A stretch of DNA of 49,831 bases from a virus, in UHGV virus genome UHGV-0044336; one strand, written 5' to 3'. The number at the start of each line of letters is the position of its first letter. Positions within the stretch are counted from its first letter, which is position 1. The position numbers are program-made. Positions 39,001-45,000 of this stretch are shown here, piece after piece.

Positions 39001-42000
39001 TGATTAGGAAAACAGGAAAGGGGGTTAGTGAATGCTTTTGCTTGATCTCAGTTTCAGTATTAATATCCATTTTTTATAAGCGTCGACGGCCTCACGAAAC
39101 ATCTTTTCATCGCCAATAAAAGTGGCGATAGTGAATTTAGTCTGGATAGCCATAATTGTTTGATCCATTTTTTGGGACTCCTGGCTGATTAAGTATGTCG
39201 ATAAGGCGTTTCCATCCGTCACGTAATTTACGGGTGATTCGTTCAAGTAAAGATTCGGAAGGGCAGCCAGCAACAGGCCACCCTGCAATGGCATATTGCA
39301 TGGTGTGCTCCTTATTTATACATAACGAAAAACGCCTCGAGTGAAGCGTAATTGGTATGCGGTAACGCCGCGCTCAGGCGGCCTTGATAGTCATATCATC
39401 TGAATCAAATATTCCTGATGTATCGATATCGGTAATTCTTATTCCTTCACTACCATCCATTGGAGGCCATCCTTCCTGACCATTTCCATCATTCCAGTCG
39501 AACTCACACACAACACCATATGCATTTAAGTCGCTTGAAATTGCTATAAGCAGAGCATGTTGCGCCAGCATGATTAATACAGCATTTAATACAGAGCCGT
39601 GTTTATTGAGTCGGTATTCAGAGTCTGACCAGAAATTATTAATCTGGTGAAGTTTTTCCTCTGTCATTACGTCATGGTCAATTTCAATTTCTATTGATGC
39701 TTTCCAGTCGTAATCAATGATGTATTTTTTGATGTTTGACATCTATTCATATCCTCATAGATAAAAAATCGCCCTCACACTGGAGGGCAAAGAAGATTTC
39801 CAATAATCAGAACAAGTCGGCTCCTGTTTAGTTACGAGCGACATTGCTCCGTGTATTCACTCGTTGGAATGAATACACAGTGCAGTGTTTATTCTGTTAT
39901 TTATGCCAAAAATAAAGGCCACTATCAGGCAGCTTTGTTGTTCTGTTTACCAAGTTCTCTGGCAATCATTGCCGTCGTTCGTATTGCCCATTTATCGACA
40001 TATTTCCCATCTTCCATTACAGGAAACATTTCTTCAGGCTTAACCATGCATTCCGATTGCAGCTTGCATCCATTGCATCGTTTGAATTGTCCACACCATT
40101 GATTTGTATCAATAGTCGTAGTCATACGGATAGTCCTGGTATTGTTCCATCACATCTTGAGGATGCTCTTCGAACTCTTCAAATTCTTCTTCCATATATC
40201 ACCTTAAATAGTGGATTGCGGTAGTAAAGATTGTGCCTGTCTTTTAACCACATCAGGCTCGGTGGTTCTCGTGTACCCCTACAACGAGAAATCGGATAAA
40301 CTCTATTCACCCCTACAGAGAGCAAAAGAGAAACGCCGATGAACAACTCATGGTGGCAGGAACTAATGCATTTTTTCCTGCAAGGAATGACACTTAAACA
40401 GTTGATTCATATGCTAATCATCCTGATCATATTGATTATTGTTATGCCGGTAAGCGTAAAAGAATGGATAAACCTGCATAGTCCAGAAATCCTTCCTCAT
40501 TACTGGATGTATTACATCCTGTTGTTTTGCGTTAGCTATGTGCTTAACGGCGTTGTTAATTCCGCTTATCACGCTGTGACTGAAAGAATTGAGGTATTCG
40601 CTGCTCAGAAGCGCAAATCTAAAGAAGAAAAATATGTGCAAGATTTGTTTGATTCGTTAACTCTTGGAGAAAGAGCGTATTTGGCATTCGCTGTAGCCGC
40701 TAATAACCAGCTACAAACGGAAAAGGGCGCTCATGAATCAATTTCATTGCTCAAAAAAGGACTCCTCGTTCGAAGGCCTCCTGCTGTTGGATATCCTGAT
40801 ACCGACCGTTTCGTTATCCCTGAAAGCTATAGACATGAGTGCTACATTAGGTTTGCCGGGAAGGCAGACAGCCTTATGGATGAACTTATCGCTCAGGATA
40901 AGCATGGCAAAAACAAGTAATTAGCAAATGAATTTATCATCTCGCCGTCAGTTGTTTTGATTTCCGGTAGCCTGCCGCGTAAAGAGCTACGTTCGGAAGA
41001 CAAGTTGAACCTTCATATTTTCTGGTCAACGTTGTCAGAGTTATCACTTCTGCTCTCATTGCTGGTTTGAGCTTGCATTGCAAGACCACTCGTGAAGGGG
41101 TTGGCCTGTGTAGCTTGTCGGAGCTGATCGCCTCCTGACTTTGCAGATTTGCGCGACGAGCTCTACGGCGAGAAGCTGCGGTGCCTTTAAATTCTGTTTT
41201 TCTGGACATGGATTCCTCCCGAATAAACTTTGGCGATGCAATCTCGAAGCTCCTCCTGAGACGGTTGCTTCGGCATTGCATCCCACAGCTTATGTGGTTG
41301 GGTGATCTGGCTTTTCAGCCACGTAGTCGAGAGTCGACGTTGTTTAAAGAGCCTGCCAGTCTGTTCCATTTGGCTTCCAGCGTCCTGCTGACGGTTAAAT
41401 AGTACGATATGTACTTTACAAGATCAATACAATTTGTTGTAAGTTGGCGTGGTTTTTTATAACGCTTTGTATTTAATAGTGTTGTTTTTTAGCGTGGATG
41501 TATTGCCTCGGCGATGTAAGGAGAGATCAGAATTGCGTGGTTTAGTGGGTTGCATCTATTTATTTTTCAATAAATATAATTGGTTATGTGTTTTTAGGTG
41601 GGCGAACGTGAGGCAAAGAAAACCCGGCGCTGAGGCCGGGTTGTATTATGCTGCAAGTCTCTTAACCCAAGTCTCTCTTTTGGAGAATGGTAGAACTTGG
41701 CTTGATTCATGGAAGAGTAAGGAGAGTTGTTGCATTTGATCACCAATTGCTTCGCTGTCTATAACAACAAATCTGTTGTTATACTCCTCACTTGAAGCTT
41801 TAAGATCAATTAGTTTCCCAAGCAATGAGTAAGCACTATTCCAGCTTCCTCCGTGTTTCACGCTTGATGTAAAAACGTATTTAGGTATGTCGGTTTTTAT
41901 TGTTACAGGGACGGTAATTTGATGTCCACTCAAGCCATATACGTTTTCACGAAGAGAAAGTGCGTCTCTAAGCTCTGTGTGATATAGATAATCAATAACC

Positions 42001-45000
42001 ATACTTTCAAACTTTTCAGCTTGAACTGGCTGATACCAGTCTAACGACAAAGTTGATGCGAGTATACCAGCTCTAATTATGTTCGATGTAATCGCACCGA
42101 CATCCTTTTCTGTTGCCCAAGCAATGATTTCTCCTCGAGCATTGAGTTCTGCGCCTTCTTTAAGCAGTAATTGTCGTATCTCATCAAGTCGTTTTTTGGT
42201 AAGCGAGATCCCTCTTGCCTCCATATTCATTAAGGCATCGCATCTGTCACTAACTAAATACCTACCATTGACTTCACGGATAAAGGCACCGACATGCTCT
42301 CCATCATCACAGTAAGTGAATGGACTGATAATTCTCAAGGTCTTGCCTATTGGATGGCATTCGAAACCTAGTTGTGAGATCACTGTTGAGCACATCATAT
42401 TCCAAACCCCATTTGCCCCGACTCATCTTCAAGCGGTAAAGGTATTCTCCCAGAGTAAGTTATGTTCAGATGTTTACAGAAGTAATTCCAATACCCTACC
42501 AGGTCATCTGGGTTTATGTCATCTTCGATTGGAAACGCTATTCTATCACTATAGTATCCAGCTTCTTCATAGTATACATGGTAGTGAGCACCGTAAATGA
42601 TATCTTGGTACTTCGGATGATCGACCTTGTAACTATTCGTGTGTTTGTCAAAGTGATAGGTATCTACCGCGAAAACCCTCTTGTTATGATAGAAAGCAAT
42701 AATATTTATTTTAGGGTAAGAAATCGGGTCATCAGGTTCTGAATCCTGATCTGGTTTCCATTTCAGTTCAAACTTTAGCCCTTGTATAGGTATACAATCC
42801 TCATCCAAGGGGATGATATGGGCTTGTAGCCACATATCAGAGCGACTTGGTTTCTGTTTCCATTTAACGCCAGAAAAGTTAACTATTTTTTTTACAATAA
42901 AGTACTTTATCAACTTCTACTTGGCTTGGCTGATAATCATCTATTTTTGCCAATGTTTACCGCCCTGTAAATTGTAGATAAAAGTGGTTTCATCACCCAA
43001 ACGTCTCTTCAGGCCATTGGCTGGCGATAACTTTCCCCACAACGGAACAACTCTCATTGCATGGGATCATTGGGTATTGTGGGTTTAGTGGCTGTAGAAA
43101 CACCTGACCGCTATCCCTGATCAGTTTCTTGAAGGTAAATTCATCACCACCAAGTCTGGCTATGCAGAAATCGCCGGGCTCAACAGCTTGCTCAGGGTCA
43201 ACCAGAATTAACATCCCGTCAGGAAAGCTGGGTTTGGAACCTGTTGGTGCGGTCATTGAGTTACCTTCAACCTCAAGCCAGAATGCAGAGTCACTGGCTT
43301 TTTTGGTTGTGCTTACCAATCTCTCCGCATCGCCTTTGGTAAAGGTTCTGAGTTCTGGAGAGAACATCCCAGCCTGAACATGAGAAAAAACAGGGTACTC
43401 ATATTGTTTTTTAACTGGGGCCGATGAGTATTCGCCAACAGGTGAAAATGTCCCGTCGTGGTTGAATGATATGTTATCAATACCAAGGTATTTAAACACC
43501 ACACCAATATCACTAAGAGATGGATGACGAGATCCGCGCAACCAGTGTCCAATCCCACCCTGCGTCATACCTAGCTCTTCGGCTAACTTCTCTTGAGTTA
43601 TGCCGAGCTCTTTCATTCTGGATCTAGCCAGTTCATACCATTTCATTTTCATGTCCTTATTATTACGCTCTGTACTGGAACCATCCATGCACAATGTGTA
43701 TTTTTACTTGTATTCGCAAAGTACATATTGTATTTTTTTATTCGTGTTTACTATGGAGGGCATATGAGCAACCTACGAAAATATCGAGAGTCACTGAATA
43801 TCTCTCAAACAACACTTGCTAAGGCAGTTGGATGCACACAGGGAGCTATCGGACATTGGGAATCTGGTCGTCGCTTCCCAGACCTTAAAACATGCCGTGC
43901 TCTTGTTGCGTGCCTAAACAAGTTAGGCGCAAAAGTCAGTCTTGATGACGTGTTCCCGCCGGAACACAAAGCCGCTTAATAAGCGGATCCGCTCTTTGTA
44001 ACAACGGACATTCGTCCTACGTCGCTGAAAAGCGAGTTCCAAGATATCTGACCAACTAAGGCCATATGCGTTTCCACGCATACCTTTCAACTAACTATTC
44101 ACTATTGGAAATCTTAAGAAATGGAAAGAACAAGTTACAGCAAACTATCACAGCGTGACGTTGATCGCGCAGAAACAGATTTACTTATCAATCTGTCAGC
44201 TATTACCCAGCGCGGTCTGGCAAAGATGATTGGCTGTCATGAATCGAAGATAAGCAGAACGGACTGGAGATTTATTGCTTCGGTCTTGTGTGCTTTCGGA
44301 ATGGCATCAGACATCAGTCCGATTAGCAGGGCTTTTAAGTATGCGCTTGATGGACTCACCAATAAAAAACGCCCGGCGGCAACCGAGCGTTCTGAACAAA
44401 TCCAGATGGAATTCTGAGGTCATTACTGGATCAATCCACAGGAGTCATTATGACAAATACAGCAAAAATACTCAACTTCTGCAGAGGTAACTTTGCCAAA
44501 CAGGAGCGTAATGTGGCAGATCTCGATGATGGTTACGCCAGACTATCAAATATGCTGCTTGAGGCTTATTCAGGCGCAGATCTGACCAAGCGACAGTTTA
44601 AAGTGCTGCTTGCCATTCTGCGTAAAACCTATGGATGGAATAAACCAATGGACAGAATCACCGATTCTCAACTTAGCGAGATTACAAAGTTACCCGTCAA
44701 ACGGTGCAATGAAGCCAAGTTAGAACTCGTCAGAATGAATATTATCAAGCAGCAAGGCGGCATGTTTGGACCAAATAAAAACATCTCAGAATGGTGTATC
44801 CCTCAAAACGAGGGAAAATCCCCTAAAACGAGGGATAAAACATCCCTCAAATTGGGGGATTGCTATCCCTCAAAACAGGGGGACACAAAAGACACTATTA
44901 CAAAAGAAAAAAGAAAAGATTATTCGTCAGAGAATTCTGGCGAATCCTCTGACCAGCCAGAAAACGACCTTTCTGTGGTGAAACCGGATGCTGCAATTCA

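Follow-up and report, generated by a model that had tools for sequence, protein, structure and literature searches.

A gene pair carried as cargo behind a prophage repressor gene, a candidate anti-phage module distantly related to PDC-M24

The virus genome UHGV-0044336 was analysed over its whole length of 49,831 nucleotides (nt), which is called the window here and to which all coordinates refer unless another locus is named. On its minus strand two genes, designated A and B, follow directly after a cI-type repressor gene. In the reading that we favour, with about even confidence, they are a mobile two-gene cargo of repressor operons, distantly related to the phage defence candidate PDC-M24, and most likely form a lysogen-expressed anti-phage module that acts by superinfection exclusion or abortive infection. 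The analysis covers gene organisation, boundaries, conservation, purifying selection, association with repressors and predicted folds, and the evidence for a role in defence is positional, comparative and structural-predictive.

Results

An exchangeable slot between cI and the terminator

In minus-strand order the locus consists of cI, gene A, gene B, a terminator-like hairpin with its T tract, the operator/promoter region and N. The repressor gene (42993-43688, minus strand; longest open reading frame (ORF) reaching to TTG 43694) encodes a protein with a helix-turn-helix (HTH) and a peptidase domain (Pfam HTH_3, 2.1e-10; Peptidase_S24, 1.3e-28). Its counterpart is labelled "cI" in phage PhiR57_1 and "LexA family protein" in Escherichia coli Nissle 1917, and it is presumed to be the first gene of the pRM operon. 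Gene A was called as an ORF of 172 residues from an alternative TTG (42395-42913, minus strand), and sequence comparison gave it an ancestral extent of 185 residues, likewise from a TTG (42395-42953; see below). Its stop codon is coupled to the ATG start of gene B (250 residues, 41646-42398, minus strand, ORF call) in a 4-nt overlap, ATGA. The intrinsic-terminator-like hairpin (41621-41642, minus strand), which has 8 pairs, 6 of them GC, and is followed by TTTTCTTT, begins 4 nt past the stop of gene B and is timm-like as judged by its position. Further along, the oL/pL operator-promoter region probably lies at 41400-41475, as mapped from the operator annotation of an Stx1 phage, and is followed by the antiterminator gene N (40937-41281, minus strand; Pfam N_peptide, 9.7e-33), which relatives annotate in a 273-nt version (40937-41209).

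The boundaries of the cargo were mapped by blastn of 40900-44000 against two sibling phages, PhiR11_1 and the Stx1 phage. Homology extended from 40900 to 41642/41643 and resumed at 42991/42995. The left flank (40900-41643 in the comparison with PhiR11_1, containing N, oL/pL and the terminator) is 99.3% identical in PhiR11_1 and 93.2% in the Stx1 phage, and the right flank (42991-44000, containing cI and cro) 98.6% and 98.5%, respectively. These limits place the cargo exactly between the cI stop codon and the terminator, which itself belongs to the conserved flank; the exchangeable segment, or moron, measures 1347 bp (41644-42990). Between the same flanks PhiR11_1 carries two unrelated genes of 283 and 163 residues (L027 3743-5123) and the Stx1 phage an unrelated ORF of 173 residues (L028 4039-4560), and this cargo gave no PADLOC match. 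The comparison indicates that the slot behaves as a swap hotspot. In phage lambda the equivalent position holds the arrangement cI-rexA-rexB-timm, and the slot, with cI stop, cargo, terminator, oL/pL and N in this order, is the rexAB equivalent.

A preceding inspection of the window alone (the sequence-only reading) had already placed the pair after cI and before a terminator, pL and N, in the position of rexA-rexB in lambda. This placement is borne out by the Pfam matches, the hairpin and the flank homology. Its description of two overlapping minus-strand ORFs holds for the 250 residues of gene B and for the 4-nt overlap; the 172 residues assigned to gene A had to be replaced by the 185 of the family gene. 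The segment had also been described as much richer in AT than the phage backbone. The 19 G/C counted in the 60 bases of 42661-42720 were found again, and the cassette has a G+C content of 39.6% against 49.6% for the whole window. However, the early-left/immunity block (38900-44400) is itself at 42.6%, so that the contrast of the cassette with its immediate neighbours is modest.

Association with prophage repressors

In every locus with enough upstream sequence the A-B pair was found directly downstream of a prophage repressor gene and co-oriented with it; in a few of these loci one small ORF stands between the repressor and gene A. Homologous pairs, the most divergent at about 28% identity, come from 11 gammaproteobacterial genera, from a Pseudomonas phage and from metagenome contigs. 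Repressor-linked loci occur in Aeromonas, Klebsiella, Thorsellia, Pectobacterium, Izhakiella, Yersinia, two Providencia species, Xenorhabdus and Pantoea, and the metagenome relatives at 28-32% identity show the same repressor-adjacent placement. The 4-nt overlap of A and B is usually kept. The upstream repressors differ, most of them containing an S24 domain (195-282 residues) and that of Klebsiella being an HTH-only, Rac-type protein of 128 residues, and the prophage backbones around the pairs are unrelated to each other.

Several loci show variations on this arrangement. The Pseudomonas Detrevirus phage VB_PaD_phPA-G encodes an unannotated A homologue (L035 ~3980-4504, plus strand) which shares 4 nt with the annotated B homologue; a hypothetical protein of 216 residues is encoded between this A homologue and the CI-like repressor. 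Izhakiella and both Providencia loci have an ORF of 113 residues (MAFNDIE...) between the repressor and gene A (L019 6044-6385; L021 6053-6394; L022 6052-6393). The Izhakiella ORF matches the PADLOC candidate PDC-S43 (1.4e-38), which, judged from this match, would make two defence candidates stacked in one slot. On two metagenome contigs (L032 1321-2919; L033 1046-2644) a distant A-B pair follows an ORF of 78 residues that consists of Peptidase_S24 only, an arrangement that may represent either a remnant or a unit of three genes standing by itself. The neighbours on these contigs (PurE-like AIRC, an N_methyl pilin-like gene) do not look prophage-like.

Relation of the proteins to PDC-M24 and predicted folds

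Searches of Pfam with hmmscan at E<=1 returned DUF6978 for A and DUF1828 for B and nothing else, neither RexA nor RexB being among the matches. NCBIfam gave no match for either protein, no similarity to a metabolic or virulence family was found in Pfam or NCBIfam, and both family profiles searched against PDB chains yielded nothing meaningful (best E-values 0.56 and 0.26). Signal peptides are absent from A and B, and so are transmembrane-like segments (maximum Kyte-Doolittle value over 19 residues 0.45 for A and 1.19 for B). This agrees with the sequence-only reading, which had seen no likeness to RexA or RexB and no polytopic membrane partner. The sole profile links are to phage families without known function and to a defence candidate; a PADLOC scan of the pair returned PDC-M24 alone.

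PDC-M24 is one of 145 phage defence candidates (Payne et al., bioRxiv 10.1101/2024.01.29.577857; CAS_00098, 153 instances). The source of these candidates was cassettes lying within BREX, DISARM or type I restriction-modification (RM) loci (bioRxiv 10.1101/2024.01.29.577857); for PDC-M24 the RM/BREX embedding is taken here from the description of the method in that paper. The pair resembles PDC-M24 in having two adjacent, co-oriented genes, A then B, and in matching the B profile over its full length (PDLC04540, 4.7e-10, residues 2-249 against profile positions 4-254 of 256; PDLC04539, 1.5e-7). A weak alignment of A to the A profile covers the conserved Asp/His core. The pair differs in that PDC-M24 was defined from the BREX-, DISARM- or type I RM-embedded copies whereas the clade of the window rides prophage repressor operons, and in that the match is distant, that of A especially. 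The profile matches indicate that, within the PDC-M24 candidate family, the pair forms a distant clade carried in repressor operons.

Gene B further matches phrog_1960 and, over residues 26-110, Pfam DUF1828 (33.5 bits, cut-off 22). Among 48 diverse relatives of B, DUF1828 was matched by 47, PDC-M24B by 39 and DUF1829 weakly by 7 (best E-value 0.0045); gene B of the window gave no match to Pfam DUF1829. The AlphaFold2 model of B (predicted local distance difference test score, pLDDT, 83) has two domains, of which the N-terminal DUF1828 domain is predicted to adopt a fold like that of type III secretion system (T3SS) chaperones and YbjN, and the C-terminal one a restriction-endonuclease-like fold with an alpha-beta-beta-beta-alpha-beta core. 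In the 48 relatives D51, F130, S157 and W186 are invariant and G155, G158, G194 and D198 nearly so, and the motifs GASGHQ, GKMxDxK and RxVVxED recur. Within the C-terminal domain the broad family has S157, W186 and D198 as invariants, and the helix with which this domain begins bears F130. Strand 2 starts with GxSGH(Q), strand 3 has no conserved acidic-x-Lys motif, and the conserved D198-x-K200 is on a helix in the model. A reading of GxSGH...D198 as the signature of a Ser-His-Asp hydrolase was set aside for lack of supporting evidence.

Gene A matches phrog_2017 (4.2e-62), and a distant relative matches DUF6978 faintly; a characterised fold was not matched. Down to 23% identity R92, D97, H104, N106, G121, H123, H125, C159 and N163 are invariant, and the His cluster among them is putatively metal-binding. 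The sequence-only reading had recognised no catalytic motif, a statement that has to be qualified by the invariant R/D/H/N/H/H cluster of A and by the restriction-endonuclease-like fold predicted for B.

Distribution and selection

The same 1.6 kb is present at 99.9% identity in the phages ev017, ev207, PhiR57_1 and PhiR63_2. Among 5426 complete E. coli genomes 239-241 (about 4.4%) carry the pair at an identity of at least 99%, including Nissle 1917, ATCC 25922, NU14 and the type strain; it is frequent in strains of extraintestinal pathogenic E. coli (ExPEC) and group B2, for example the first three of these. The gene B family is small (237 clusters at E<=0.001 among 1.84 billion representatives) and nearly all its members have about 250 residues. 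A protein of the B type is encoded in 8 of 50,697 phage records, and none was found in the plasmid records searched. The pair had been called an uncharacterised operon and a candidate novel system. It indeed has no characterised function, but it had already been recognised, being annotated as a DUF1828 protein and having relatives in PADLOC, and together with its prevalence in E. coli this makes it less novel than had been thought.

When A and B were compared with their homologues from nine genera, the proportion of nonsynonymous differences (pN) was 0.14-0.44 and that of synonymous differences (pS) 0.70-0.89, the latter being saturated. These values indicate that both are real coding genes under strong purifying selection. 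For gene A ten genera were compared, and in nine of them its start codon is GTG or TTG.

A frameshift in gene A of the window

At 42886-42893 the window has a run of eight T (A8 in the coding strand) where PhiR57_1 and Nissle 1917 have seven, and this is the single difference in the alignment. Similarly, 1601 query bases align to 1600 record bases in ev017, ev207 and PhiR63_2. A query of 76 bases over the homopolymer matched 241 complete E. coli genomes, none of them (0/241) at 100%, and all 241 are read, like the phage copies, as carrying T7. With seven bases gene A has 185 residues and starts at the TTG at 42953, 39 nt past the cI stop; its homologues in other genera have 183-187 residues and a conserved N-terminus, MAKxDDYLPSQxEVDxVLYCKK. 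In the window the frame from this TTG shifts after codon 22 and stops after 24 codons. The 172-residue form lacks the conserved first 21 residues and has eight unrelated ones instead. The one extra base in the T tract thus makes the 172-residue ORF a frameshifted form of the 185-residue family gene. Over its whole length the window differs from PhiR57_1 by 26 substitutions, one 5-nt indel and one homopolymer indel. Since the T8 tract is the sole homopolymer indel in 49.8 kb, the assembly is not generally prone to such errors, and the extra T would be either a lone sequencing error or a private frameshift.

Discussion

A role in defence is made plausible by the position in the slot, the association with repressors, the link to PDC-M24 and the presence of further candidates nearby (PDC-S43 in the Izhakiella locus, SieB in the window), as well as by the conserved residues of A, the strong purifying selection and the prevalence in E. 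coli. From this we infer a scheme of co-transcription, complex formation, triggering, nuclease activity and a defence phenotype. In the lysogen cI, A and B would be transcribed from pRM, the transcript ending at the timm-like terminator. A would be made at a low level from its conserved non-ATG start, and the ATGA overlap would couple the translation of B to that of A. Both proteins would be soluble. The DUF1828 domain of B, as a protein-binding domain, would serve as the sensor and its restriction-endonuclease-fold domain as an effector directed at nucleic acid. A, a beta-rich protein with the invariant Asp/His cluster (R92, D97, H104, N106, H123, H125), would be a metal-dependent catalytic or regulatory partner. 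The A-B complex would be inert in the lysogen until activated by some component of a superinfecting phage, and would then attack nucleic acid and block the invader.

In a more specific form, which is quite possible but which we hold more loosely than the general one, the pair would be an anti-phage system of undescribed mechanism that combines a chaperone-like domain and a non-canonical restriction-endonuclease fold with a metal-binding partner of unseen fold, that has spread through Gammaproteobacteria as repressor-operon cargo, and that may contribute to the prophage-3-dependent phage resistance of Nissle 1917. In that strain A and B most likely correspond to two hypothetical proteins of prophage 3, numbered 1291 and 1292. 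The published work on this prophage confined its test to the repressor gene and did not settle the role of the others. Going by the gene order, EcN_1294, which was published as "phage repressor", may not be cI but cro. Nissle prophage 3 (L002) is truncated on its left by ISEc52 and an integrase fragment right beside sieB; cI, A and B are intact.

A number of observations weigh against a function in defence. The matches that connect gene A to known families are weak, both to Pfam DUF6978 (2.2e-4, 21.9 bits, below the gathering score of 29.6) and to PADLOC PDC-M24A (PDLC04536, 4.2e-4, 18.2 bits, residues 91-150 only). The canonical PD-(D/E)xK residues are absent from B at the expected strands, in the 48 relatives and in the model, so that its nuclease activity is a prediction from the fold; an active site of a non-canonical type may exist. 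PDC-M24 itself is without experimental support (bioRxiv 10.1101/2024.01.29.577857), and another PDC pair, M63AB, gave no defence on testing. A literature search for DUF1828, DUF6978, PDC-M24, the RefSeq accessions and the Nissle locus tags returned no functional study, one possibly relevant study lying outside its coverage. Co-occurrence with defence islands, raised in the sequence-only reading, did not emerge: the inspected loci with enough upstream sequence were repressor operons or repressor-adjacent, and none was RM- or BREX-embedded, most of the distant B relatives being on metagenome contigs of less than 7 kb and a narrower B alignment on GTDB genomes having recovered close relatives only. 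Unless a sequencing error accounts for the extra base, the frameshift in gene A of the window may leave this copy impaired. Finally, the tight link to repressors could be the sign of a role in the control of lysogeny.

RexA of lambda is reported to modulate the CI/Cro switch, and the pair might similarly be an accessory regulator of the lysis-lysogeny decision, or of the repressor function, of its own prophage. This explanation, unlikely but foremost among three alternatives, fits with the association with cI/LexA-type repressors, which persists in relatives at 28-32% identity and in prophage backbones unrelated to each other, with the two metagenome contigs that have the 78-residue S24 fragment upstream and neighbours that do not look phage-like, and with the protein-binding fold that is predicted for the chaperone-like domain of B. 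However, the upstream repressors are of different types (S24 proteins of 195-282 residues, an HTH-only protein of 128), which makes a specific protein partner unlikely. Moreover, sibling phages with 98.6% identical DNA in the cI region lack the pair entirely, and PADLOC picked up relatives from RM/BREX contexts outside prophages.

Two small coupled genes with a 4-nt overlap that always occur together, the upstream one with a conserved weak start codon and the downstream one with a predicted nuclease-like fold, are also reminiscent of a toxin-antitoxin-like addiction module, in which a toxic nuclease-fold enzyme and its neutraliser would stabilise the prophage. We rank this explanation next, and likewise as improbable. 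Unlike type II toxin-antitoxin systems, neither A nor B matches a DNA-binding domain, be it of the HTH, ribbon-helix-helix or AbrB type that is typical of their antitoxins. With a gap of only 39 nt after cI, the pair lacks its own promoter region and depends on the cI promoter. No toxin-antitoxin model was matched in PADLOC or Pfam. In addition, the frameshift in the window would cost A its 185-residue form and leaves B intact. The loss of an essential antitoxin in this way would hardly be tolerated, unless the 172-residue form is still made. That the pair is a moron which serves host fitness and has nothing to do with phages, acting for example in stress, metal or virulence physiology like the bor and sitABCD cargo, seems the least probable of the three. 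The same phage does carry sitABCD, bor and a porin gene, A has its putative metal-binding His cluster, and the pair is common in ExPEC/B2 strains, but there are no signal peptides or transmembrane segments, and in place of metabolic or virulence similarity the profiles link the pair only to phage families and the defence candidate. Together these three explanations hold a substantial share of the probability.

If the favoured reading of the pair as an anti-phage module is considered beside known systems, lambda RexA/RexB offers the closest positional parallel, with two co-oriented genes right after cI, a terminator before oL/pL and presumed expression in the lysogen. It differs in showing no sequence similarity, in its membrane partner, RexB having four transmembrane helices, and in folds unlike those predicted here. 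Apart from position, the pair lacks every RexAB feature that was tested. Among the single-gene defences that adjoin prophage repressors is BstA of the Salmonella prophage BTP1. It belongs to the same broad class of defence loci carried by prophages (PMC8585504), but it comprises one protein only, to which a cognate DNA element, anti-BstA, belongs. NgoMIV/PspGI-type enzymes and the nuclease domain of Can2/Card1 have the canonical catalytic Asp and (D/E)xK, which are not conserved in B; Can2/Card1 furthermore has a CARF domain at the N-terminus, whereas that of B is predicted to be T3SS-chaperone/YbjN-like.

Should the pair indeed defend, it would bring new protein chemistry to the lysogen-expressed exclusion systems, A having a fold without characterised relative and B a nuclease-like fold in which the catalytic residues typical of such enzymes are missing. 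A first functional handle on PDC-M24, DUF1828, DUF1829 and DUF6978 would be gained as well. Its presence in about 4% of the complete E. coli genomes, including Nissle 1917 and ATCC 25922, implies a possible effect on phage therapy and on the prediction of host range for ExPEC. That the linkage to repressors has stayed strict over such deep divergence deserves an evolutionary explanation in its own right.

Other features of the window

The superinfection-exclusion gene sieB (40339-40920, plus strand; Pfam SieB, 9.1e-22; phrog_1301, 1.2e-121) lies beside N and is a second exclusion gene of the lysogen type in this neighbourhood. An Rfam scan near the locus gave as its sole match the cIII thermoregulator Lambda_thermo (39256-39314, minus strand; 88.5 bits, E 2.8e-21). 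Compared with PhiR57_1, the window lacks GGTTT (5 nt) at 18262, in the short gap between the tail genes L and K. The sitDCBA operon for an iron/manganese ATP-binding cassette transporter, mapped from the annotation of PhiR57_1/ev017, is present as cargo of the b region (~25991-29440, minus strand). The window is a circular permutation of a phage of the ev017/PhiR57_1 type with a structural module like that of phage 21, and its ends split a porin gene (OmpD/NmpC-like; 49252-49831 and 1-347, minus strand) that is located between Q and the lysis genes.

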